A DNA stretch of 53,973 nt, counting the filler, from Basidiobolus ranarum (lineage: Eukaryota), in the NCBI GenBank assembly GCA_040143965.1. It is 3 parts of 3 records of this genome, joined end to end, with 100 filler letters (N's around TTAATTAATTAA, not from the genome) between each part and the next. Parts side by side here need not be neighbours in the genome. Positions count along the whole stretch, not along the records: positions 1 to 17,944 come from JASJQH010000287.1; 2 more parts are not named here. One strand, 5' to 3'. Below, piece after piece: positions 5,606 to 53,973 of the stretch. Positions within the stretch are counted from its first letter, which is position 1, and each line of letters starts with the position of its first letter. The position numbers were made by a program, and so were the translations under genes. Under the pieces are notes generated by a model. The model ran no database searches and had not been told where the DNA came from. It saw nothing but the letters and a program-made list of their open reading frames with translations.

Positions 5606-7039
5606 TATATTCTTTAAAACGATGGATATTCTCTCAAACGACTGCTGTAATGTCACTTTTATAGTCCTAGGTATTTCTGCTAATTCAAGCGTATTCCGAT
5701 TCTCCGAGTCCGAACATTTCCATCTGAATGAGGACTTAAAACATATATGTTGGTTACTTCAGAAGAGAATACAAGTGCCATCTACCTATCCACCACAATC
5801 TACACGTGCCGTCTTTAAAGAAATTCATGTCCAGTAGACAGAAACGTGTCTAAGGACAAGTAGGCTTGGTGTTACTAGCTACGAGAAAGATGTTGTACAA
5901 AGTCTTCCGGAAAAATAAAGAAAAATACCTGTCGACGAAGAACCTGTTTGGAAGCTTAGATTAGAGCCTCACTAGTGAGTCGTATGTGTTTGGCTGGTCA
6001 GATTAAAGTGTACATTTTGTAAACCAAACTAATAGATTTTGATATATCTTGCCAGTAGAAGATAAAGCGAGCACGTGGAAAAATCAAAGGAAAAGATATG
6101 AAGACTGTAAGTTGGTACTCGTTTATATCTAGATTGGTTAGTTTGAAACTCTTGTATTACGATATCTTTTCGTCGAACTGTTTCACGAAGAAATTAAATG
6201 GCAACACTGTTGATGTGGTATGTTTTCTTTTTTTGTATATCAGTCATTTAAGCTTGACTGAAAGCCGCCTCCACATATTAAATATACCTTTCGTACACTT
6301 CACTACCAATTCTAAGATACATAAAATGTATAGCCAGTTTTACATTGTCTTTCATATCTTTTAGATGAGAGAAAATAGAGTCTGTGAAATGCAGCTCTCT
6401 GTCGTGCTCAAATTTTCCTATTGTTGTATTGTGCCATAGTAAGTGGCCAGTCAATCATATCTCCTCGACTTCAATCTTACTCAGCACTATTTTGTTTGTT
6501 CCCTATATCTATGACAAAAACTCAGCATCTCTAGTAAAAATACAAAGCAGTGCTGCTTTAAACGTACCAAGTAAATATACGCGAATACTAAAGCTACCTT
6601 TTCTCGAAGTCTTTTAGTTGACGAAACTTAGGCTAAGTTAACGAGTAATCTATTGAGTTGTAGGTCTCGTATTTTCCAATCTTTTGCGCATATGAAATAA
6701 GATAAAGGAGGTGCCTATTTCGCTAGTCATCCAATTTTGGAGAAATGGCTAGGATTGACCAGTCACACTTAGGAGGAGTTTAGAAATTAAAATAGCTGCG
6801 CTCTGGAGGTATTTTACACTGATTGGAATGTCTAGATTAGATTTAAATATAAACTTGAAGCACAGTCAGTTTAAAAAATTTAACGAAAATTTTATTTATC
6901 TTAAACGTATATTTAAACGAAATACCAAGTAACAATTACATAAGCAGTTACTGTTGGGATGATCATTCGAAACATGAAACAGGAAACATACATAAAAGGA
7001 TCCGCTGAGAACATAATTATGGCAGATTGGTATATATTC

Positions 7040-7101
7040 GTTTCATTGGAAGAAAGAACCATCACACACAATTAATGCATGATCCGGGTACTTCCTTATC
7101 A
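7040..7101 (+). repeat. Dispersed repeat, copy B (pairs with 1636-1697)
   Basis: Same alignment as copy A, in direct orientation. Confidence 0.85.
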
Positions 7102-7945
7102 GTGCCTCTAATCATGACTTTAATATTAATATTCAATCGGACATTCAGGTTCTTGGAATGAAATATGAGCAGCCATGGTACAGAAGATCCGGTCAATTCA
7201 GAAGTACAAATGCTCTCTAAACTGGGCATATCTTGATACCCACACCTCCCAGATCAGGAAGTACAAGGTGGGGAATTGGCGGGAGACAATGAATTATGTA
7301 TTACATGGAAAAGTGATTAAATTCCAAACTATGTTAAGCACATGCGTTTAAGTCTATTAATGGTATTGTTATATTTAGGATGAAATATCGATGACATGAC
7401 AACCAACCAAATACTATCATTAACTCGAAGGAGATTTTTTTGGCTCCTTGAAGGGAAATGCACAGGCTGTATCCGAGTCACGCACAGTGGGCATAAGCTG
7501 TAGTGAATTCTTAAAAATATCCACTATTTGGTAGTTGGCGGTAATTTCCATTAGTTTAATTCGTTTCAATTTCATTTAGGAGTGACTAGTGGCTACATAC
7601 GGAAAAATCTCTTAAAAATAACTATCGTCCAATAGGAACCTCATTCATATGGCGTTACTTTAAAAGAATGTTTACAAAACAGCTAATCTAATTGTGTTTC
7701 ATCTCCGCATCGCTCTCTTTTCTCTTTTAGAAACGCACCTTTCTTTCTTAGTTCCCTTGACGCTCTCGTTCGAGTTAACTTTCAACCTCCCTCCTATCTG
7801 TGCTTTATTAACCTCTGAATACTGCTCTATTACCGTTGTTCGTGTGCAAACAGTTAATTATAGATATTTATCTTGATAGACACCTAGTTATTCTTTACGC
7901 CAGCCAATTCAATTTTGTTATACTGCTAGACACACTATAATACAT

Positions 7946-10490
7946 ATGATGGCCACTTCTGCCCCTATAAATCGTCCTAGTTTCGAAGAGCATTTTAAAG
8001 GTGACTTAATCCTGGCTGACGTTGTTAGTCAAGACATTTCTTCTAAATCAAATCCAGATACTGAAACTCGGCCGGCCGAGCACTTAAAAGATACTCAGAG
8101 GAGAGATTCCAAGTGTGACGTTGATATTTCGAGTGAAAAGTCTTTAAAACTTGAACCTACTGAACAGGATATTAAACATCCAGTTGAAAGCATTCTTGTC
8201 GATGAATTCTCAGATAGTCAACCTGATTCTCCCGTCGTTTTCACTGAAACTTCTACACCACAGTCTGAAAATGGCGTGACGGACACTACAGAAGATATCC
8301 TACTTGGTAAAGAAAATAAAATGGAGTCTAGTTCGAAGTCCTCTGAGACTCTGTTAACTACAAAGGATACCGACGCTTCTTCTCAGATTAGTGCAAGCAG
8401 TTTCGCAACTGCAGATGGAGACCTACCTGAGAAAGATGAAACCTCAAGTGTTCAAATGGAACCCATTGAGCATATTAGTGAGCCAATTATTGTCCCAGAA
8501 GATTCATTTGAAGAGCCTGCTGCACCAAGCATCGTACCAGAGAAACCACAACCAGATCAAATCTTCAAGCCCACAGCAGAGGTTATAATGACAAGTTCTC
8601 CTGAAATGGCTGCTCAACCAAATGAAATTCATGAGCAGGTTGAACAGACACCCCCAGAGGATGTTGAATTGAAACGCGAGGACAATTCCGCTGTTGGAAT
8701 GTTCAGACGCTTCACATCCACTTTCAGTCTTCGAAGTGCTCGAGGTACATTTGGATCTCGTGAATCTCTCAGGAATATCCCAGTCCCATCCAACGCGGGT
8801 AATCGAGATTCAGGTAAAAGTAGTTTAAGTGATGGTTCAAGTGGTTCAGATCAGGCTGTAACTACTCCCACTGGAGTGTATTCTCGAGATATCCCAGATT
8901 CATTCTCCATGCTCGACGATACTTCTTCTATTCGATCATCAGTTACTGTCGATCTATTAGTAGCCAGAGCAGAAGCTCATAACAAAGTTTTTGGTCCTAA
9001 ATCACCAGTCGCTCATCTTCGTTCTGGCTCCTTTTCTCGCCTTAAGGGACTCATCGATGAAGAAGCTGAGGCTAACATTGATTGGGGTATGTCGGGATGT
9101 TTAAACACTAGGATCATATTAAGTAACTAATATTTCAATTGCAATAGAATTTTGGGGAAATCTTATTAGTGATTATCCCGGTATGGTCCGTAAGCAAAGT
9201 CGCTTAGTATCCAAGAACATACAGAGTGGTATTCCAGCTTCGTTGAGAGGTTCTATTTGGCAACTTATTAGCAAGAGTAAAGACTCTCCACTTGAGATCC
9301 TTTACAATCAACTCCTGGAGCAAACCTCATCATTCGACAAGATGATCACCCGTGATTTATCCCGTACCTTCCCTAACCATGAGTTTTTCCAAAGTGATGG
9401 CGGGGGTCAAGAAAGCTTGTATAACGTGGTAAAGGCGTTCTCATTGTATGATACCGATGTCGGCTATTGTCAAGGAATTCCGTTCATCGTTGGCCCGTTG
9501 CTCCTTCATGTAAGCACTCTATTGAATTCTTTTTCCTTGAATATCTGTAATAACATTGATTATTAGATGCCCGAAGAGGAAGCGTTTTGCGTTCTTGTCA
9601 GACTGATGAGGGCATATGGTCTCCGTGGCCACTTCACTCCTCAATTGGAGACACTTCACCTTCGTTTGTATCAATTTGATCATTTGCTGGAGGAGTATCT
9701 TCCTATCCTCAATAAGCACATGGTTGCGGAAGGGGTAACGTCTACTATGTACGCATCCCAGTGGTTCATGACTCTCTTTGCCTATCGATTCCCACTCCCA
9801 TTAGTCTTCCGCATCTTTGACATCATTTTTGCCGAGGGAGTCGAGAGTCTTCTTCGATTTGCAATCGCTTTATTGAAGGCCAACCACGAGAAGCTTATAG
9901 AAATGCCGTTCGAAACATTGTTAGATTTCCTTAAACATCATCTTTACGAAATTTACGAGGGAAAAATCGATCAGTTGATTAGCGACGCATATGATGTTAA
10001 GATCACTACTAAGCGTTTAGATCGTCTTTCTAGAGATTACTACACAGAGTTAAAAAAACAACAGGCAGAGGTGAACCATGCTGAATCCTTGAAAAATAGT
10101 AACAAACGGTTGGAAGAGGACGTGAAACGTTTGGAGAATAATGTTCAAACCTTAAATGAGGAGCACTGTGAGTTAGCAAACGAATTTGTTCAATGTAAAT
10201 TGGATATCGCCCACCTTCAAGATGAAAATGAATCCCTTAAATTCGAAGTGGCTCAACTTAAGGAGCAACTGGGTGAATCCCGTAAAGAAGCTGAGCAGTC
10301 GGTCACCCAAGAGATGGAGCTGTTAGCACATAAAAACTTCGAACTCGCCGATCGGAATACAAGATTGGAGGATCAACTCTCCGAACTCGAGGCCCAGCTT
10401 ATCGAGACCAAGATGAGATATGCTGAATCGGAGAACGAGCGAGTGCAATTACAAAAGAAATGGGACGATCTAAGAAGGGCTTTTCACTAA
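7946..10490 (+). CDS. TBC-domain Rab GTPase-activating protein (Gyp5/Evi5-like) with C-terminal coiled coil, 3 exons
   Basis: IDWEFWG, GIPASLRGSIWQ, ITRDLSRTFP, VGYCQG and MYASQWFMTLF motifs. Introns 9087-9147 and 9510-9566. Confidence 0.93.
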
Positions 10491-11786: not shown

Positions 11787-13345
11787 TTAATGCTGATCTA
11801 TAATCTGTTTAATGGTTCCACCGGTACCAGCGGCAAGAGCAACACATCCAAATACAAGTAGGAATGCGACGCCCAAATCTTCTATCCAAATGGTCTTGAC
11901 CTTGGGAATTGTGGATCTGGCTAATTCTAGATCAACCGAATCTTTCTTAAACACTCTAACCACTCGAAGCCATGCTCCTTTGCAATCCCAAAATACACTC
12001 ATGTAGATCAAGGCAGGAATAATGTAAGAGATACCAGAGGCACATAATGCTAGAAATTCAAATGTTCAATTAGTATCTTGTTTCGCTGAATTCAATTCAC
12101 TTATCTACTTACCTCCAATTAATTGATATACGGTTCCGAGATTCTTTACCGGTAATCCAATGGCCAATGTAACAAGGAATAAGCCAACATTGACGGAGAT
12201 GTGTTGGATTTTGGTCGGTTGCTTGGTTTCGCTTTCAAACCCAAGCATGATGTTGGTCACCATTCGAGCGGAGTAGAAAACGCAGGGATAGGTGAGGAAC
12301 ATAGTGATAATCAGACAGAGACGACTGACATTGATGGCAATATCGTCACTAGGAAAGTTTGTGAAGACGTTAGAGTTCACAGATTCGCCAAATGAAGCAA
12401 ATCCAATGGCTGAAAAGGCGAGGTAAATGACCGCGGAACCTCCAACGGCGCACATAGAGGCGATGGACCAACGCTTTTGAGAAGGATTCTTCAAGGTGTT
12501 ATAGTTTAAGAAAGTCGAGTGACTAACTACATAGGCAAAACTCATCACACCAATCGCAGGAAATATGTTATCACCGAAGGTTGTATATTTGATATCATAG
12601 TCTTTGGCGTAGGTGGGAGCACGAATGGCGACAATGATACATATGATAGGCAGACAGGCGATAGAGATGGCCGAGAACTTGGCCAAAGGAGCCAAAGTTC
12701 TGAAGAATAATAACGGGAAAATGAAAATACAGGCGCACATGACAATGCCGAAGATTCGGTTTTGCAACACACCAAATCCTGGAACGTATTGCTCTGCTAG
12801 TAGAGGAAGCGTATCACCAATAACTAAACATCATCCAACGGTTAGTTTCGAATGTAACAAATGGGAAACTAAACGAGAACTTACTAATTAAATAACTGAT
12901 AGCAATACCCAGTCCATTGAAAAGGATAAAGATGTTCAAAGCGAATGATCCAACTTTTCCCAAAGAGCTTTGAGCTAGCATAGAGTAATGGTATATACCG
13001 GCTTGTCTACCACTTTTGACGAGCATTCTTAAAGAAAAGTCGGTCAATACACCAACAAACGCCAACACGATCAACCCGGTGACAAAACCAGCTTGCTTTA
13101 CAGCATATGGCAGTCCTAGAATTCCAGAACCGATGATTGTGTTAAGAACATTGAAGGCAACTAGAACAATAGGGATTAGCAAGATGGAACCGGAATAGAA
13201 TCATAATCAAACGGATCTTACCTCCAGCTATGCTGACATTGCCTTCTTCAGGAACGTTCTCGGTGACTTCAAGTTCGGGCTTGTCGCTCTTGGACAAGAG
13301 ATCAGGAGAAGACTCCTGCAAGGTTTTATCATCATCATAAATCAT
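11787..13345 (-). CDS. AAAP/Aa_trans amino-acid transporter (Avt2/SLC38A11-like), multi-exon
   Basis: AFNVLNTIIGSGILGLPYA, GVMSFAY, GFASFG, VFTNFPSDD and many hydrophobic helices. First intron 13161-13221. Confidence 0.92.
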
Positions 13346-14114
13346 GTGTGGCAACAATTGATCAGTACAGTATGTTTACGGCGGGAAGGGTTCTTTTATA
13401 CTTGAGCCTCTAATGGTAATTCGTACCTAGAACCAGAGAACTTCTACGAAAATGGCCAAACTGGGTGTATTTGATTTGAGCATTTCTTCGAGTCAGCCAA
13501 TCGGTTTACATAGCCTATCCAATGCACTGGTTGTTACTGAAGTTTCCAATGGATGTTGAATGTAATTTCGAATTTGGTAGTCACCAGTTGGATCCACCCA
13601 TCAAAAAATCTCTTTTTGTTTGTGACCAGATTAATACCTATTCTGTATCAAGGCTGTTCGAGGATGTGTGCTACCAGCACCTGCAACAGGGGATGTTCAA
13701 AAACGGATGTCTTTGACAGAAATGTATGGATAGCACCGAAATACCAATTCTATGACTGAAAAGTAACTGAAAGTACGCAATTGAACCAATTTCGTATTTA
13801 CATCGCACACGAATCATCACAAGAAGAGTAGCTTCCTCTGTTTAATGGAAATGGTGCAGCTTATCATATCAATCAAGCTTGCAAGGGTAGAGATTACCCC
13901 ATTGAGGATACGTCTTTCGCTATCATACTCATCATCGATATAGAGCAGCAGCTTAGTAAGAATATTTAGTTGTCCATTCTGTTAAACAACTTCTCATGAA
14001 CCAAATAAGCAACATAGATAGAATGCTTTTGAAAGGAAACTCTTCTTGCTTGAATGCAACGAGGGCTTACTGCAGTAAAGTAGAGTATTTGTTAAGTTGA
14101 TACACTGTGTACAA

Positions 14115-14359
14115 TTACTATAAGGAGATTTAAACAACTGTGGAGGTGTCACTTCTCACACGAGCCGAAGATCAAGAATTAAACAAGCTAGTTGGAACTA
14201 CGCACCTCTTATAGTAAGAAGCCTAAAGATACTCACTTCTTATAGTAAACCAGTAAGCAACATTAAATTTCGCACCTCTTTTAGTAATCGAAGAGAAACC
14301 AAACTGCTGCCTCTTATAGTATCAACTGTTTCCCACATTCCCTTGCCCTCTTTTAGAGA
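14115..14359 (+). repeat. Motif array 1: one inverted variant site plus five direct copies of CGCACCTCTT(A/T)TAGTAA
   Basis: Direct copies start at 14201, 14232, 14271, 14306 and 14343 (periods 31, 39, 35, 37). Inverted TTACTATAAGGAGATT at 14115-14130. Confidence 0.9.
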
Positions 14360-14851
14360 GAAACATTGTCCGTGAATTCGGAACAAGTACTTGAATTTTA
14401 ACTTTCAAAGCTCTTGAAAGGTTCTTGGAGAGTAAGGACATACTTGTCTCTACGAAGCATTACCTTCCACCCTAGGACCTTTTCATACGAAACCCCTGTA
14501 TAATAGAATTTCTTACTATGGTTTATCAGTACCATATCTCCGCTCAATATATTTCAATATTGCTTCTTTATGAATACACATTCTGAGTGCACACGTCAAA
14601 GGCTATTGTGATGCTACCAAACGCAACTACAATGCCTTGGAAGTAGTACCAAGAGTACCCGGGTACCTAGAAATATTGTATGGCCTATAAGAAGTCTCTT
14701 TAACACTGATTATGCTGATTGTATAAAAAAAGTGCCACCTCCAAATCAAGAAACCTCTTGAATCGATTGAATGCTATTCTTGGCTGTCAAGTATTTTACA
14801 TTATGACTCATCATTGGCTACCTTAGCAGGAAGCACGAATAACCGTAAGCA

Positions 14852-15474
14852 TTACTAAAAGGAGATTTCTATTTGGGCGATATAACCCCAGGCAAAGTTT
14901 AAACAAAGGCAACAGTATGAAGTAGGAAAGTACGCGTGATAACCTTCAAAATTAGAAACGCCTCAATGGAAAGACCAATGGCCGGTATACTTCACCAGAG
15001 CAAAAACAGGAAACAGCTGAGATTCTATTGTGATAGAGAAAGTCTGGATTCTACAGTCATTGGTCATCACTACCGGTTATCAATCGATCTTGGAAGTATA
15101 ATATTTACTAATGATTAATGTAGGCTTATTTACAATGTAGACCTATTTGTCTCGAAGTTTCTGGCAATGCTCAATAATAGTGCTGAATTACGCTATCACC
15201 AAATATTTGAAAAAAAATGGGCTTAGAAGCACTACCTCTCAATCTTGGGAAGTGGTGGTTGTGAAGCATCTGTCAAATCTTGGTTCAAAGTGCTGAAGTT
15301 TCGCAAATCTTGCTCCATCACCTCTTATAGTTTAGCATTTCTTAAGCACGCACCTCTTATAGTAAAGTATCTCTTAAGCGCGCACCTCTTATAGTAAAAG
15401 TATAACGTTAAAGCTCATCGCCCCTCTTTTAGTAAGCAGTGTGATAGAGATTTCATCGCTGCCTCTTATAGTAG
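14852..15474 (+). repeat. Motif array 2: one inverted variant site plus five direct copies of the same motif
   Basis: Direct copies start at 15317, 15349, 15381, 15419 and 15458 (periods 32, 32, 38, 39). Inverted TTACTAAAAGGAGATT at 14852-14867. Confidence 0.9.
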
Positions 15475-15699
15475 TGAGGTGAAGGGACGAGACGAGATGG
15501 TGGTTTTGTGTGTCCTGAAGATTTCATTATGAATCGACAAAAACTTAAAATTTCAATCAGCCGAAAATATCGGCGTTCAATCGGCATGGTATATGGAATT
15601 TGCATTCCATTTTCTGATCTCAAAAAATGGGATTGAAGTTCTGATATCTATACGATTATTTTGGTGAGAGATAAGCCAACAAATAATCCTATTTTGTTT

Positions 15700-17560
15700 C
15701 TATACCTTATCAGTCAAAAAACTTTTGCGACCGGAGCCAGAAAGTATTTAGTTTGGTAATGCACATGTGTTGCAAGGTAATGATTTATATGTGATCACAC
15801 CTTGGATTTATGTCATATTATTGTGCCAAATAGTGCTCTATATCCAATATTGGATCAACTATTCTAAAATATACACTCATAACTGATTCACTCTTTTGGC
15901 ATGCATTTTTCATGATTCCACCCGACACATTGCTTACTCAATGCTCAAATAACAATCTTTTCTGTGAAGAAAGTGACTATTCGTATTCGTGTTTTTAGTA
16001 AGTTAGTTTCGAGCTCCCATTATTTTAACTTCTTTTTGCCGATATTGATTTTTTAGCTTTTTATTATTAGAGATAGTTGTTTATGACATTGAAATATGAC
16101 TGGGCCTATGTCAAAGTACTGAAGTTTGGAATTGCTTGTATGAATACATTGGCAAGTCCCCCCATTTATCACAAAGCTTCCAGAACTCCCTATCCTAAGA
16201 TATGAACTTTGTGACAATATTTTTTGATAGCTTGCTGTTGGTATAAGGTGATATAATGCTAAAGAAATTTATATTGTAAGTTGATGTTGTCCGGACCAGC
16301 ATTTGTTACATTTATGGTAAGAAAGTGTGTTCATGATAATCAAACTGGTAACTTATTCCAAAGAGACCTTCATACAGTCTATTCATTGTTGAAATTAGCT
16401 TTGCCTAAACATCTATATAGTCATATATAGTTTAGTATTTAGTTATCTTATATTTCACTAAGATATTACCCACTATTCTCAAGAGGAATTTACTTAGAAT
16501 ATTGACACCAACTTAGAAGTTCTCAGATATTTAGATTTTTCAAACTTGTAATAGAAGCCCCATGCTTTGCACACACGTTTCTAAGGCCTATATTAACACA
16601 TTCTACACATTTTCTTGCTTACCTCTTGAAAAAACTATAAATGCCAACTTTCTACTTGATAAATCAAAAAGTGAAAAAACTCAATTTCATTGTTCTCCAA
16701 ACCACTTCCAACCGGCTCTCAAAGTACTTTACCATGTTATGAGCCTTGAACTTGCACTCTCTGTAATGTCTGCTTCTCAAATTTGGAATGCATGCAACAA
16801 AGGAGATGAAAACCATAATTTCAAAACAACATAATGCTTGGAAATATATTCCATAACTGATTCTTCTTAGGAACCTATTAGGCATAGCGTTTCTATATGA
16901 GCACTTTCATCATGTAAGGAACTATGATTAGTGCAAAATATCTAGTTATCTAATTCCTTGGATGAAGATTATCATTAGTAAACATTGGTGAAGTATATCA
17001 CCTTTATCTTAATAGTTATCCCTATCTTCATAATCTCAACTATTTCCTTAAAGTTAACAATATTTAGTCGAATATTGCTTGACTGTAAATCGGGATATAT
17101 ACTTAGTACATATGCGAATTATCCAAGAATTAGCAATGTTGAGCTTGCCTAAATTAACTCCAAGATGGCTTATTGAACTTTCACAGATGTTCTGACAATA
17201 ATACCATGGTTTGTTTTTGGTATTTCTGACCAGAAGTGTAAATACTTTGTATCCCTTTTATTAAATATACACGTTTCTCATAAATTCCTTCTAAACATCT
17301 CAAATCCTTCCAACAAACATCACCAAAAGTATATTAGATATATTGTGACCATTTCAAAAAATCATTAATTGATAAATTAAAACTGGTGTGCATATTTTAC
17401 TCTGATGTGGGAATAACATTTCTGATGTATCCAAGTATGGAACTTGGTTGAGCATAGCATACCTGTAATATATCAAGTCTTGGTGATTTGTGACTTCTTG
17501 ATTTTCCTGTAAATTGCCGTGTGGAATCGAGCCTATATCTATTCAAATAGTGATTCTCCT
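15700..17560 (-). mobile_element. Heavily decayed, probably nested non-LTR (LINE) retrotransposon relics
   Basis: Stop-riddled minus-strand remnants lie in RT order: GSIPH, GYIRNVIPTS..FNLSINDFLKW (cf. GxRQGxPLSPxLFNL), TFGD, SHLGV. 16387-16737 is homologous to the LINE relic at the window end. Boundaries are approximate. Confidence 0.55.
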
Positions 17561-17719
17561 GTATCTTATAAAATAACTTCTAGTTAATTGTTCAATATCC
17601 AACTCTATTCATATTACTAATAATAATAAATTGATTTTTGTTATATTCATGATGTATTTATTATACTCGTCTGTTAATTAAGGTGATGACTGAGATACAA
17701 GTCTCGATGCTAGTTTCAA

Positions 17720-17887
17720 TTAATCCCTAGGTATCTCTTTGATGATTTTGGCTGGTACTCCTCCCACCAATACATATGGTGGAACATCTTTAGTAACTAC
17801 GCTCCCGGCAGCAATGGTAACCCCATCACCAACAGTGACTCCAGGACAGATAATGGCTCCTCCACCAACCCATACGTCATTCCCAAT
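17720..17887 (-). CDS. Maltose/galactoside O-acetyltransferase (hexapeptide-repeat family), last exon; rest lost in the gap
   Basis: After an AG acceptor the frame reads [55 protein letters not shown]. Confidence 0.9.
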
Positions 17888-17944
17888 CTACATCGACGAA
17901 ATATGTTTAGTAAGCGCTAAGTGGTTGGAAAGATTGTTTAGTCT

Positions 17945-18043
17945 NNNNNNNNNNNNNNNNNNNNNNNNNNNNNNNNNNNNNNNNNNNNTTAATTAATTAA
18001 NNNNNNNNNNNNNNNNNNNNNNNNNNNNNNNNNNNNNNNNNNN
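17945..18043. other. Assembly gap with artificial six-frame stop linker
   Basis: N run with TTAATTAATTAA at 17989-18000. Confidence 0.98.
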
Positions 18044-18155
18044 NGTGAATCTAGAAAAGGTACAATCTTAGGTTTATTCTTTACATTAGTTTTAGCTGTT
18101 ATATTCACTGCTCTTCAAGGATTCGAGTATTATAATGCACCATTTACTTTTAGTG
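18044..18155 (+). pseudogene. cox3: Mitochondrial cox3 fragment (NUMT or contig-end chimera)
   Basis: Reads ESRKGTILGLFFTLVLAVIFTALQGFEYYNAPFTFS with A/T-ending codons. It stops abruptly where cox3 continues with DG. Confidence 0.88.
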
Positions 18156-18726
18156 CAATTCACCCGTAGCTCTTACTGAAAAGAACTGCCCCACTTATTG
18201 TATCAAGTAATACTACAGTATACATGTGGGTGAACAAGCCGAAAGCTCAATTTGTAACAAATTCATGTCTAAGCTTTCTCAGTAGCTTCTAATTCAAAGC
18301 CATCATTCTAAAATGCAAGAGTCTACAAATACTGCCTTTATCAGAATAGTATGTTGAGGTGGAACTGAAAGCCTCACATTGCGTTCCAACTATCGTCTTT
18401 GTGTGTTAAAAAGGTATTCACTGAGAGGATTCGAGTGATTATTTTATAAAGTATCTCGCTTTCGACATTCTATTTGGTAGCTTGAATGAACAGCTCTTGG
18501 TGATGGTGATGTACACTTGAATCAGTTTGGTTTATTCTATATTTCCCACATGATTGGGGATATCTGCTAGAGATAGTACTCAAGGTATACAAAATATATT
18601 TCATAACATATAAAATTGGCCAAGTTGTGCCAGATTACACAGGGCGTTTTCATAGAAAGTCTTCAATAAAAACAGGCATCAATTTGTATTCATAATTTTC
18701 AACTAAAGAAACCTCAACAAAGATGA

Positions 18727-35977: not shown

Positions 35978-36077
35978 NNNNNNNNNNNNNNNNNNNNNNN
36001 NNNNNNNNNNNNNNNNNNNNNTTAATTAATTAANNNNNNNNNNNNNNNNNNNNNNNNNNNNNNNNNNNNNNNNNNNN
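35978..36077. other. Assembly gap with artificial six-frame stop linker
   Basis: N run with TTAATTAATTAA at 36022-36033. Confidence 0.98.
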
Positions 36078-50652: not shown

Positions 50653-51839
50653 ATGACTCTTCCTATCAACGACACTCCTCTTACCGTCTCTAGCTTATCT
50701 CCTGAGGAGTACAGACAACGCAAAGTTGCTCTTATCAGTGGTACGTTTTCCATCAGCATTGCATTCCACATGTGATGCATTGTCTCATTCTTCTTTCTAT
50801 TTCAATAGGTATCAGTGGCCAAGATGGTTCTTACTTGACTGAATTGTTGATCTCCAAGGGATATACTGTTCACGGTATCATTCGTCGTTCTTCATCCTTC
50901 AACACTGGTAGAATCGAGCATTTGTATAAGGATCGCCATGAGGATGGCTCCCCCAAGATGGTTCTTCATTATGGTGACTTGACCGACTCTACCTGCTTGG
51001 TTCACATCATCTCCCAAATCCAACCTACCGAAATCTACAACTTGGGTGCCCAATCCCATGTTAAGGTATCCTTTGATATGGCCGAGTACACCGCCGATGT
51101 TGACGGTCTCGGTACTTTGCGTTTGTTGGATGCCATTCGTACTTGCGGCCTTACCAAGCACGTTCGTTTCTACCAAGCTTCCACCTCGGAGTTGTACGGG
51201 CACGTTGTCGAGACTCCCCAAAAGGAAACTACTCCTTTCTACCCTCGCTCCCCCTATGGTGTTGCCAAGTTGTACGCCTACTGGATTGTTGTGAACTACC
51301 GTGAAGCTTATGATATGTATGCTTGCAACGGTATTCTCTTCAACCACGAATCTCCCCGTCGTGGACGTACTTTCGTTACTCGTAAGATCTCTCGTGCTGT
51401 TGCCAACATTCATTTGGGCAAGCAAGAATGCATCTATCTTGGTAACGTTGATTCCCAACGTGATTGGGGACATGCTCGTGATTATGTTGAGGGTATGTGG
51501 ATGATGCTTCAACAAGACAAACCCGAAGATTTCGTTCTTGCCACTGGTGAGACCCACACTGTTCGTGAATATGTTGAGAAGGCTTTCAAGGTTGTCGGTA
51601 AGGACATCATCTGGGAGGGTGAAGCTGAGGGTCTTGTTGGTAAGGAAGCTGATACCGGTATTGCTCGCGTTCGTATCGACCCCAAGTACTATCGCCCTAC
51701 TGAAGTTGAACTCTTGTTGGGTGAACCCACCAAAGCTCAGGAGAAGATGGGCTGGAAGCGCAAGGTCACCTTCCAAGAGCTTGTTGAAGAAATGGTCAAA
51801 GCTGATATTGAAGGTGTCAAAACCGGCGATCTCAATTAA
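50653..51839 (+). CDS. gmd: GDP-mannose 4,6-dehydratase, 2 exons
   Basis: [61 protein letters not shown] and [10 protein letters not shown]. Intron 50741-50808; strong C/T-ending codon bias. Confidence 0.97.
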
Positions 51840-52679: not shown

Positions 52680-53973
52680 ATATATATTTGTCTCATCATA
52701 ATCCTAATTCACGCACTGAACAAAATAACAAATCTAACATACCAATAATCGGTGAGACTCCATTCCGGTTCCAGCCAACTCTACTTGCGACACCAGCTCA
52801 GAATCAAATGCAGCTATCGACCGAAAAGCGAGCGACAAACGTCTCTGGGCTTGGTTGCAAGGGTGGCAACATGCATAGTTGGCCCAGTGCAGCAACACTA
52901 AAGACCAACAGCTATATAGTAGATATCATAGGATAGTTGAAAAGAATGGGAGTTTTATGCATTCTTATAGTTTCAATCTATATTTTTATAACCAAATAAT
53001 TCCGAATTGGCTTATTTTTTTCCATATATTTTACCATTTTTTTTCACCAATACGTTGTACATCATCATTGATCCAATAGGATTATTCAATACCCATGGGC
53101 TAAGTCCTCGATAATTCCACTCATTCCCTAATTTGGGGTGTTATCTATACCTAGTATATCATCCAAAGTTGATCATAGCTCTCGCTTGTACTACTTTTAG
53201 AAGTTATGCAAGGGTCTCTCGATTATGCTGGTTTTTCTAACTGCCTAGATAATGTTCTTATGATCCAATGCAATTGATGAGCATTTTGCCATATTGACCA
53301 ACACGGGAGAACATCCATTTCAAGGGACCATAGGTGACTTCTACTCAAATTCCAATATTGTTGCGTGAATAGCGGATGCTGGTGTATCATTCAAAATCTC
53401 GAAATCCAGACACATGTATTCTATGTGTCAAGTGTAAGAAATACAGTAACCTCATCTTTCTAATTTTACCTGTTTTATACTGAATGTTCCCAGTTGCATT
53501 CTCACGATTTATAAATAAATTCTCAGCCCTATCCTCCACAAGCTCATTTCTGAGTGCACGAGAATACTGGAATAAGGGCTAAACTGTTTTTTGACCTACA
53601 TATTTTAAATGCAATGGTATACTGCTACATTATTTATCCTATTCATGAGTTTTTCACTTGTGGCATGTACCTGATACATGTTAAAATATTTAGGGAGCCT
53701 TTTGGAAGTGGTTAGGAGAGCTAGAGAAATTGGTGGTTTTCACTCATCAAGTAATTGAGTTGAGAGTTGATATTTATACTTTTGTCAAGAGGTAAGCAAA
53801 CAAACGTGTAGAATGTGTTAAGAAAGGTCCCAGGACCATGCGTGCGAAGTTAAGGGCCTTGTAAATGTTGAAATTAGCATTGCCTAAACACCTATATAGT
53901 CATATATAGCTTAGTACTTAGTTATCTTATAATTCACTAAGATATTATCAATTATTCTCAATCGGAATTTACT
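52680..53973 (-). mobile_element. Decayed LINE 3' portion (end of RT to C-terminal zinc knuckle and 3' UTR); runs off the window end
   Basis: Minus-strand remnants are YDYIGV* (cf. KYLGVW), HWIIRTLSRQL, DPCITSKSSTSESYDQLW (degenerate CxxC..ETxxHLW knuckle) and W*NIWKKI. DNA homology to 16387-16737. Confidence 0.6.

Follow-up and report, generated by a model that had tools for sequence, protein, structure and literature searches.

A duplicated array of a 17-bp motif in Basidiobolus ranarum is a candidate cluster of protein-binding sites

Introduction

Arrays of short, similar sites are familiar from several kinds of DNA. Homotypic clusters gather sites for a single protein, as in the yeast UAS elements that carry several sites for one activator, or the gypsy insulator with its 12 Su(Hw) sites. 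Subterminal arrays bind transposases, through the 12-bp TnpA motifs of En/Spm, the TnsB sites of Tn7 and the L1-3/R1-3 sites of Mu, while the iteron origins of plasmids F, P1, pSC101 and R6K combine direct repeats with inverted half-iteron operators. To our knowledge, the cis-regulatory DNA of early-diverging fungi is little charted, and sequence-defined chromosomal elements have hardly been described in fungi other than budding yeasts. One centromere type of an early-diverging fungus, that of Mucor, is described in the available text of bioRxiv 10.1101/706580 as an AT-rich stretch (~200 bp, or ~100 bp at ~70-80% AT) followed by a 41-bp motif, lying in 15-75 kb of gene-free DNA marked by Grem-LINE1. 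Two further kinds of short signal are relevant: the heptamer TTAGTAA/TTACTAA, which is bound by a fungal Yap1, PcYap1, in EMSA (PMC8977021), and the RNA motifs UCUU/CUUG of Nab3 and GUAA/GUAG of Nrd1 (PMC10317158; PMC5737872).

Here we analyse two arrays of a 17-bp motif in Basidiobolus ranarum. They lie in a window of 53,973 nucleotides (the whole stretch of DNA that was analysed, about 54 kb), and had been pointed out in an earlier note made from the sequence.

Results

The direct motif, CGCACCTCTTWTAGTAA, is present in ten copies, all on the plus strand, forming two blocks at 14201-14360 and 15317-15474. Copies start 31, 39, 35 and 37 bp apart in array 1, and 32, 32, 38 and 39 bp apart in array 2, leaving spacers of 14-22 nt between them. 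Each block is preceded by one inverted 18-mer, ATTACTAWAAGGAGATTT, at 14114 and 14851, giving twelve clear sites in total (10 direct, 2 inverted). These are listed below with two weaker sites and the two gene ends that bound the interval; bit scores are from a position weight matrix (PWM).

13343-13400, minus strand: 5' end of the Aa_trans gene, with TATAAAAG at 13400-13393 and the ATG at 13345-13343
14114-14131, minus strand: inverted site A, reading ATTACTATAAGGAGATTT on the plus strand, with the 10-nt core CTTATAGTAA on the minus strand
14201-14217, plus strand: array 1 copy 1, CGCACCTCTTATAGTAA, 28.0 bits
14232-14248, plus strand: array 1 copy 2, CTCACTTCTTATAGTAA, 22.9 bits
14271-14287, plus strand: array 1 copy 3, CGCACCTCTTTTAGTAA, the T variant with TTAGTAA inside
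14305-14322, plus strand: array 1 copy 4, TGCTGCCTCTTATAGTAT, the GCTGCC-headed variant, 19.0 bits
14342-14360, plus strand: array 1 copy 5, degenerate, CCCTCTTTTAGAGA / CTTGCCCTCTTTTAGAGAG, 14.8 bits
14685-14695, minus strand: weak additional inverted partial site, CTATAAGAAGT on the plus strand, not significant alone
14851-14868, minus strand: inverted site B, reading ATTACTAAAAGGAGATTT on the plus strand, with TTACTAA inside
15317-15333, plus strand: array 2 copy 1, ATCACCTCTTATAGTTT, produced by a recent 32-bp tandem duplication, 19.8 bits
15349-15365, plus strand: array 2 copy 2, CGCACCTCTTATAGTAA, homologue of array 1 copy 1
15381-15397, plus strand: array 2 copy 3, CGCACCTCTTATAGTAA, homologue of array 1 copy 2
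15419-15435, plus strand: array 2 copy 4, CGCCCCTCTTTTAGTAA, the T variant, homologue of array 1 copy 3
15457-15474, plus strand: array 2 copy 5, CGCTGCCTCTTATAGTAG, homologue of array 1 copy 4
15992-16001, plus strand: lone weak site, TTTTTAGTAA, with TTAGTAA inside, 0.5 kb past array 2
17720-17887, minus strand: last exon of the hexapeptide-repeat acetyltransferase gene, bounding the interval on the far side

Allowing up to 3 mismatches, the 17-mer CGCACCTCTTWTAGTAA gave 6 matches against 0.18 expected (0 of 100 shuffles reached 6), and its 12-nt core CCTCTTWTAGTA, with at most 1 mismatch, gave 9 against 0.62 expected (0 of 100 shuffles), all on the plus strand and spanning 14205-14321 and 15321-15473. 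The PWM was built from the ten direct copies themselves, which scored 14.8-28.0 bits against 11.6 for the best match elsewhere in the 54 kb; neither the PWM scan nor the motif search found a further array or similar copy in the rest of the window. The inverted 18-mers are identical at 17 of 18 positions, and are the sole matches to ATTACTAWAAGGAGATTT in the whole window at up to 3 mismatches. Direct and inverted sites share a 10-nt core, CTTWTAGTAA, whose 8 exact matches in the window are 6 direct sites on the plus strand and the 2 inverted sites on the minus strand; its 5' extension is CGCACCT in the direct copies and AAATCTC in the inverted ones. Copies 1-4 of array 1 have their positional homologues in copies 2-5 of array 2, offset by 1148-1152 bp. 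Array 2 gained its additional copy through a recent tandem duplication: a 32-bp tandem repeat of 2.5 copies with 89% matches (TRF) occupies part of this array, and the remaining units share the 17-mer alone. The layout in the earlier note is borne out on each point, with nine core matches and a tenth, degenerate copy scored by the PWM making ten co-oriented copies in two blocks with 31-39 bp periods and 14-22 nt spacers, the offsets reproducing the order of variants common to both arrays, and an opposite-strand site, differing by one base between the two, standing ahead of each block.

The two arrays also provide a comparison between sites and the DNA that separates them. Homologous 17-mers are identical at 64 of 68 positions (~94%), whereas the homologous spacers agree in 33 of 64 columns (~52%) and contain indels, an identity close to that of shuffled spacers (0.455 +/- 0.036), which reach the observed value in 6.3% of 1000 shuffles. 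As the motif had been defined after its conservation was seen, the Fisher test of motif against spacer identity (p = 2.4e-8) was corrected for the ~35 phases of the periodic block, giving p ~1e-6. For the inverted 18-mers the local alignment score is 31, where the null averages 18.7 +/- 2.1 and never exceeds 26, and no residual homology was found in the tails, linkers and pre-regions, whose best local scores (16-20) match their nulls (16.6-21.6). Between the units, blastn returned a sole alignment, of 14200-14321 with 15348-15473 (71.8% over 131, E = 1.4e-11). On this comparison the sites are under constraint while the DNA between the copies has diverged, since the motif is identical at 64 of 68 positions beside near-shuffled spacers, with no homology outside the sites. 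The suggestion that kept motifs beside drifting spacers reflect selection for a sequence-specific binder is thereby strengthened.

The arrays occupy a 4.3 kb interval between the 5' end of the Aa_trans transporter gene, whose first exon runs to a GTAAG donor near 13217, and the 3' end of the hexapeptide acetyltransferase gene. Array 1 lies ~0.8-1.0 kb and array 2 ~1.9-2.1 kb from the Aa_trans TATA box, and the next gene is 2.2 kb past array 2. The over-representation of the sites (9 versus 0.62 expected) therefore adjoins a Pol II gene, upstream of its TATA box and ATG. In B. meristosporus, GMD has paralogues at 96% and 90%, so that the Aa_trans upstream region probably also has a homeologous counterpart. 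The location corrects the view of the interval as gene-free and LINE-flanked: the flanks are ordinary cellular genes, and the 42 ORFs scanned in the window gave 0 Pfam matches to reverse transcriptase, endonuclease or transposase families. ORFs inside the interval had neither a Pfam match nor a homologue, including an 83-aa ORF across array 1 (no homologue at E <= 1). A hexamer coding score found no stop-free window above 0.25 in 13400-17900, a scan with little power, as known exons were also missed. A dispersed repeat of another kind, at 16387-16737, lies 0.9 kb from the arrays and resembles 53676-53973; therefore mobile DNA has entered this interval. Separately, a second repeated word, AGTRCTGAAGTTT, occurs at 15289 and 16115 (2 matches versus 0.2 expected).

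Searches further afield returned nothing comparable. The exact 17-mer was found in three metagenome contigs, and these matches were attributed to chance, each being single-copy with no array. Two adjacent cores matched once among prokaryote genomes, in a 2-copy duplication after a Marinomonas gene, and once among viral contigs, in a 15-bp coding repeat of a phage contig, both unrelated; a distant blastn search of a plasmid collection produced no match to the arrays. Among the matches listed, literature containing the motif strings was all unrelated judging by title, and literature on Basidiobolus transposable elements held no such motif in its titles and abstract openings. A scan for bacterial-type promoters and terminators stayed at shuffle level, under a model that does not suit fungal DNA.

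Among possible binders is a fungal bZIP factor of the AP-1/Yap type, as TTAGTAA or ATAGTAA is contained in the motif. Across 13400-17700 there are 8 occurrences of TTAGTAA/TTACTAA, where dinucleotide shuffles hold 1.35 +/- 1.17 (none of 500 has as many as 8); the density is 1.86 per kb compared with 0.24 per kb in the remaining window, or 8-fold. Five of these lie outside the 12 sites, against 1.25 expected (2 of 500 shuffles reach 5), an enrichment that is borderline after correction, as ten sub-motifs were tested. Among the sites, 2 direct copies and 1 inverted copy contain the exact heptamer. The assignment to AP-1 is nevertheless weak, because 7 of the 10 direct copies carry ATAGTAA instead of the optimal TTAGTAA, and the best-conserved part of the motif, CCTCTT, falls outside the bZIP heptamer. 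CGCAC is likewise conserved outside it, and this additional conserved 5' half points to a site that is composite or larger.

Discussion

The arrays are best explained, at a probability of about 0.4, as a duplicated homotypic cluster of protein-binding sites that would act as a distal regulatory module. Since the motif was kept while the DNA between copies decayed, its copies probably all serve a single regulatory protein as docking sites. One sequence-specific DNA-binding protein, or one protein pair, would recognise all sites in both blocks, and the cluster would concentrate this factor upstream of the Aa_trans gene. The most likely output would be that of a distal cis-regulatory module, either UAS/enhancer-like or a silencer, with the Aa_trans gene or an unannotated transcript within the interval as its target. 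We infer constraint at the level of DNA, protein binding and a transcriptional output from the pattern of the sites and their position. That the 10-nt core is kept in both orientations is natural for a DNA-binding site, and the turnover of the array through duplication of units resembles that of binding-site clusters. Two features are less accommodating: a distance of 0.8-2.1 kb from the promoter is long for a fungal UAS, and counts against a module of this kind, while the strict co-orientation of the ten direct copies also fits a transposon end or an RNA-level signal.

The first of these would make each unit (14114-14360 and 14851-15474) a small non-autonomous DNA transposon with asymmetric multi-site ends, with an inverted transposase site on the left and about five direct sites on the right, or alternatively a regulatory block left by a mobile element. 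We regard this as doubtful, although the arrangement, an inverted site with about five direct ones, is seen twice, an inverted pair of 10-12 nt is made by the inverted site and the last direct copy, five sites in ~155 bp is a density like that of subterminal transposase-binding arrays, and the dispersed repeat at 16387-16737 is mobile DNA of a different kind just 0.9 kb away. Against it, neither the single units nor the two together are bounded by a terminal inverted repeat (TIR) longer than the 10-13 nt site core, the flanks, inspected at 14114, 14322/14360, 14851 and 15474, showed no target-site duplication (TSD), and there was neither a transposase-like ORF among the 42 scanned nor another copy within 54 kb. 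The earlier note had itself reported the lack of a TIR, TSD or associated ORF, with which the inverted-repeat, flank and Pfam checks concur, and its transposon candidate gained no confirmation from the same four results. Resemblances to particular families were also discarded: the CACTA-type termini (CACTG at 14103, TAGTG at 15472) have differing flanking triplets and a "TIR" consisting of the site alone; an LTR pair or TRIM would have internal sequence resembling a PBS or PPT, which reading that sequence did not reveal, and the 72% identity of the arrays is due to the sites only; and the bases of a PIF-like TTA/TAA TSD belong to the inverted symmetry next to the core. Moreover, inserted copies decay uniformly, yet here the sites are 94% and the spacers ~52% identical, and two young insertions from anciently diverged subfamilies would be needed, 0.5 kb apart and co-oriented. 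The same contrast weighs on a neutral, decaying minisatellite without function, the least credible of the explanations considered. Part of array 2 is indeed a plain 32-bp tandem repeat, but uniform decay cannot keep blocks of 12-17 nt ~94% intact across about ten copies beside spacers at shuffled level with indels, and the inverted 18-mers stand out as conserved stretches within DNA that otherwise does not align.

The two remaining explanations differ in what would read the sites. As RNA, the plus-strand copies would present UCUU-N3-GUAA/G, a pairing of Nab3-type and Nrd1-type motifs of the Nrd1-Nab3-Sen1 (NNS) kind, that could stop or mark a divergent non-coding RNA heading right from the Aa_trans promoter, or serve some other RNA-binding protein; a variant invokes docking-site/selector pairing of the inverted site with any one direct copy. 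This is distinctly unlikely, even though all ten direct copies contain TCTT, 7 of the 10 follow it with GTAA or GTAG after three bases, and all ten are on the strand that a divergent transcript from the promoter at ~13400 would copy. An RNA used in an Nrd1 complex structure, UUUAGUAAUCC, matches array 1 copy 3 at 10 of 11 bases, as given in the consulted part of PMC10317158. However, NNS termination was worked out in Saccharomyces cerevisiae, the sole organism in that part of the source (PMC10317158). The yeast sites are short and degenerate rather than conserved 17-nt units, the CGCACC half is left unexplained, and the inverted sites could act on the opposite strand only. The inverted site is predicted to pair with a direct copy in the minimum-energy fold, but folding energies showed no excess stability over shuffles (z = +0.16, +0.43, +0.38 and -1.17), and Rfam gave no match, whether at gathering thresholds or at E <= 1. 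A structured RNA was rejected on these z-scores, docking/selector pairing is without folding support, and the idea of a repeat-spacer non-coding RNA locus finds no backing in Rfam or folding. As DNA, the arrays could instead form an iteron-like element, such as a sequence-defined origin, a boundary or insulator, or a partition or short centromere site, cooperatively bound by a dedicated protein, with the inverted 18-mers as auxiliary or auto-regulatory sites. Direct arrays with partial inverted copies do recall iteron origins and their operator half-sites, and the arrays are unique in 54 kb, with constrained sites. Such an element is nonetheless very improbable, given irregular spacing (31-39 bp) without helical phasing, no AT-rich unwinding stretch (GC of 31-45% in 100-bp windows across 14100-15600), no rep-like ORF and no family match for the ORFs between or beside the arrays, genes at 0.8 kb and 2.2 kb, and the absence here of the features described for Mucor-type centromeres. 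Part of the case for an origin or centromere was a gene-free, LINE-flanked setting; no such setting exists, and the proposal falters further on the missing AT-rich core and the closeness of genes.

The value of the locus lies in its being a clean natural experiment, in which an array was duplicated and the sites alone survived. It defines a 17-bp recognition sequence at base resolution, which can serve as a probe to identify a candidate binder. If the motif marks many promoters, they would constitute a regulon; if it marks mobile units, these would be a new transposon family with asymmetric multi-site ends; and an incidence of about one per chromosome would suggest a sequence-defined chromosomal element.

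Set beside known systems, the locus is a well-supported candidate for a binding-site cluster, rather than a new kind of system. Like the iterons of F, P1, pSC101 and R6K, it has two sets of about five direct repeats with partial inverted copies, but it lies on a eukaryotic chromosome, with no rep gene, no AT-rich DUE and irregular spacing. It shares with the Mucor core, as described in the available text of that source, a short conserved motif that is a candidate protein-binding site in an early-diverging fungus; compared by features only, the single 41-bp Mucor motif differs in its setting, as there is no AT-rich core, LINE or gene-free DNA of that extent here. The ends of En/Spm, Tn7 and Mu similarly carry a dense array of 12-22 bp sites with an inverted copy at the unit's other side, yet no TIR past the site, TSD, transposase or other copies in 54 kb were found here, and the divergence of spacers but not sites is unlike that of inserted transposon copies. 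Co-oriented UCUU and GUAA/G downstream of a possible divergent promoter recall the Nrd1-Nab3-Sen1 clusters of S. cerevisiae, although the units here are long, nearly invariant 17-mers. Relative to a Yap1 response element the heptamer is present, but mostly as ATAGTAA, which would make this at best a composite site. Homotypic transcription factor clusters differ in that the binder here is putative and the sites are 0.8-2.1 kb from the nearest promoter, and in that this module was duplicated with its variant order kept and has ten co-oriented copies. Yet the likeness to them extends to several sites of 10-17 bp within 150-160 bp, separated by variable, non-conserved spacers, in intergenic DNA ahead of a Pol II gene, with turnover by local duplication.

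Results

Conserved motif arrays in an intergenic region

The two arrays are a real feature of this DNA, and the motif that recurs in them is 17 nt long (consensus CGCACCTCTTWTAGTAA). Reading of the sequence identified ten + strand copies in two blocks, each with an inverted 18-mer upstream, lying between protein-coding genes:

7880-10490 (+): RabGAP-TBC gene (Pfam), left of the interval
13345-13343 (-): ATG beginning the first exon of the Aa_trans amino-acid transporter gene, left flank
14114 and 14851 (opposite strand): inverted 18-mer ATTACTAWAAGGAGATTT, one upstream of each block
14201, 14232, 14271, 14305, 14342 (+): starts of the five copies of array 1
15317, 15349, 15381, 15419, 15457 (+): starts of the five copies of array 2
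17720-17887 (-): last exon of the hexapeptide acetyltransferase gene, right flank

Allowing up to three mismatches, the 17-mer had six matches against 0.18 expected, and with up to one mismatch the core CCTCTTWTAGTA had nine against 0.62; neither count was reached in 100 shuffles. The ten copies scored 14.8-28.0 bits with a PWM derived from those same copies, while nothing else in the 53,973 bases exceeded 11.6, and a generic search of the window for any 9-mer present three times at spaced intervals returned only these arrays. The inverted 18-mers, identical at 17/18 positions, are the sole matches in the window at up to three mismatches. Direct and inverted sites have in common a 10-nt core, CTTWTAGTAA, all eight exact matches of which in the window (six on +, two on -) are array or inverted sites. 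These searches and alignments thus bear out the earlier note on the motif itself and its inverted sites, as well as on copy counts, periods, spacer lengths and variant order.

The flanking transporter and acetyltransferase genes place the arrays in a 4.3-kb intergenic region. The promoter side of the transporter gene carries TATAAAAG at 13400-13393, and its first exon is followed by a GTAAG...TAG intron. Array 1 lies 0.8-1.0 kb upstream of this promoter and array 2 1.9-2.1 kb upstream, the latter being 2.2 kb from the acetyltransferase 3' end. ORFs within the interval had no Pfam family match, and an 83-aa ORF over array 1 had no homologue. The interval had been described as LINE-flanked, a view that must be abandoned: its flanks are the RabGAP-TBC, Aa_trans and acetyltransferase genes, and no reverse transcriptase, endonuclease or transposase family matched the 42 window ORFs scanned against Pfam.

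Adjacency is not physical across the identical artificial joints at 17945-18044 and 35978-36077 (TTAATTAATTAA between two runs of 44 N), because the window strings together three distinct contigs, each about 18 kb long, through a linker with stops in all six frames. A dispersed repeat links contigs 1 and 3, with one module on the same strand (16387-16494 and 53866-53973, 91%) and a second on opposite strands (16552-16737 and 53863-53676, 74%); this differing arrangement is probably that of a mobile-element fragment, and neither locus (16387-16737, 53676-53973) contains a 17-mer copy. Two intergenic copies of a 72-nt direct repeat (1626-1697 and 7030-7101, 79% identical, 5.4 kb apart) lie on opposite sides of HD and histidine-phosphatase genes. 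The second contig starts with a COX3 (cytochrome c oxidase subunit III) fragment (18047-18166, +; Pfam, E = 9.7e-7, covering 152-186 of the 258 profile positions) beside nuclear-looking DNA; the fragment represents either mitochondrial DNA copied into the nucleus or a chimeric end of the contig. The DNA comes from a Basidiobolus. Duplicated gene content has been reported for Basidiobolus; the GDP-mannose 4,6-dehydratase at 50805-51836 (+), with two close B. meristosporus counterparts (96% and 90%) and a B. ranarum one at 85%, fits this pattern, and hence a homeologous array locus may exist. In searches elsewhere, metagenome matches to the 17-mer were single copies, judged to be chance, prokaryote and viral matches were unrelated 2-3 copy repeats, and a search of a plasmid collection returned nothing.

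Constraint on the sites

Copies 1-4 of array 1 pair with copies 2-5 of array 2 at an offset that stays within 1148-1152 bp, and blastn aligned 14200-14321 with 15348-15473 over 131 columns at 71.8% identity (E = 1.4e-11). Array 2 gained its additional first copy when a 32-bp unit was recently duplicated in tandem (2.5 copies, 89% matches). Only 4/68 positions differ across the four pairs of homologous 17-mers, whereas 33/64 columns match across the three pairs of homologous spacers, a value reached by 6.3% of 1000 shuffles (0.455 +/- 0.036). This contrast was significant (Fisher p = 2.4e-8), remaining near 1e-6 after correction for about 35 possible phases, which was needed because the motif was chosen after being seen. 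The linkers between inverted sites and arrays, the post-array tails and the DNA preceding each unit all had shuffle-level local alignment scores, whereas the inverted 18-mers scored 31 against a null of 18.7 +/- 2.1 (maximum 26). Judged from these alignments, the sites themselves are the sole thing still common to both units. That they were retained by selection, whether at this locus or earlier, on a mobile lineage that later inserted here, is well supported, and so is the earlier note's reading of conserved motifs with drifting spacers as selection (64/68 against 33/64 identical).

Heptamers resembling AP-1/Yap-type sites

The exact heptamer TTAGTAA/TTACTAA, specifically bound by Penicillium Yap1 in EMSA according to an excerpt of PMC8977021, occurs inside array 1 copy 3 (14271), array 2 copy 4 (15419) and the inverted site at 14851. 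Across 13400-17700 there are eight heptamers against 1.35 +/- 1.17 in dinucleotide shuffles (0/500 reach eight), or 1.86 per kb against 0.24 per kb in the remainder of the window. Five of the eight belong to none of the twelve sites, where 1.25 would be expected (2/500 shuffles reach five); this heptamer had been flagged beforehand, though it was one of ten sub-motifs tried together. The enrichment is suggestive, not strong, and fits intergenic DNA accumulating sites for one DNA-binding factor. Most array copies, however, have ATAGTAA, and conservation is strongest outside the heptamer, in CCTCTT and CGCAC, which makes a composite binder or a different one likely.

Isolated TTAGTAA heptamers at 15105-15111 (-) and 16975-16981 (+) are both embedded in the longer identical word TCATTAGTAAA, oppositely oriented at the two positions against an expectation of 0.01 from shuffles; this word may be a second site class for the same putative factor. 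Another recurring word, AGTRCTGAAGTTT, is found at 15289-15301, shortly before array 2, and at 16115-16127, two matches where 0.2 would be expected; a third, looser copy lies at 13535-13550.

Discussion

The most economical reading, with a probability of about 0.4, is a duplicated homotypic cluster of putative protein-binding sites, acting as a distal cis-regulatory module whose target would be the transporter gene next to it or else some unannotated transcript. Transposon ends are an unlikely explanation: there is an unrelated dispersed repeat close by (16387-16737, matching 53676-53973), but no inverted pair longer than the site of 10-13 nt bounds either unit, inspection of the unit boundaries found no TSD, transposase is absent from the 42 ORFs, and the 54 kb hold no further copy, in agreement with the previously noted lack of TIR, TSD or associated ORF. 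An RNA-level terminator or RBP array is more doubtful still. In + strand RNA, UCUU is present in 10/10 copies, with GUAA or GUAG three bases on in 7/10, matching the elements, of Nab3 and Nrd1 type respectively, described for NNS terminators of budding yeast in excerpts of PMC10317158 and PMC5737872. Divergent transcription from the transporter promoter would copy exactly the strand that the copies occupy. Rfam gave no match at gathering thresholds, nor with the cut-off relaxed to E <= 1, and folding either strand of either array gave z = +0.16, +0.43, +0.38 and -1.17. The NNS pathway is not known in the Basidiobolus lineage, and natural NNS sites are short and degenerate, hence an RNA-level signal is kept as a rival only.

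A functionless minisatellite is the least probable explanation, since uniform neutral decay, whether of a minisatellite or a duplication, could not leave the sites alone common to both units. An iteron-like chromosomal element is scarcely more credible, as an origin or centromere is opposed by the irregular copy periods and the lack of an AT-rich core, GC across the arrays being 31-45% in 100-bp windows. The mosaic centromere of Mucor, in an excerpt of 10.1101/706580, has a core of ~70-80% AT and then a 41-bp motif, in 15-75 kb of gene-free, Grem-LINE1-marked DNA; of these features, the AT-rich core and the gene-free, LINE-marked surroundings were compared and are absent at the arrays, the 41-bp motif itself being given in a figure only. 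The arrays make a good candidate element, one whose motif is precisely defined, of a known kind rather than a new category.
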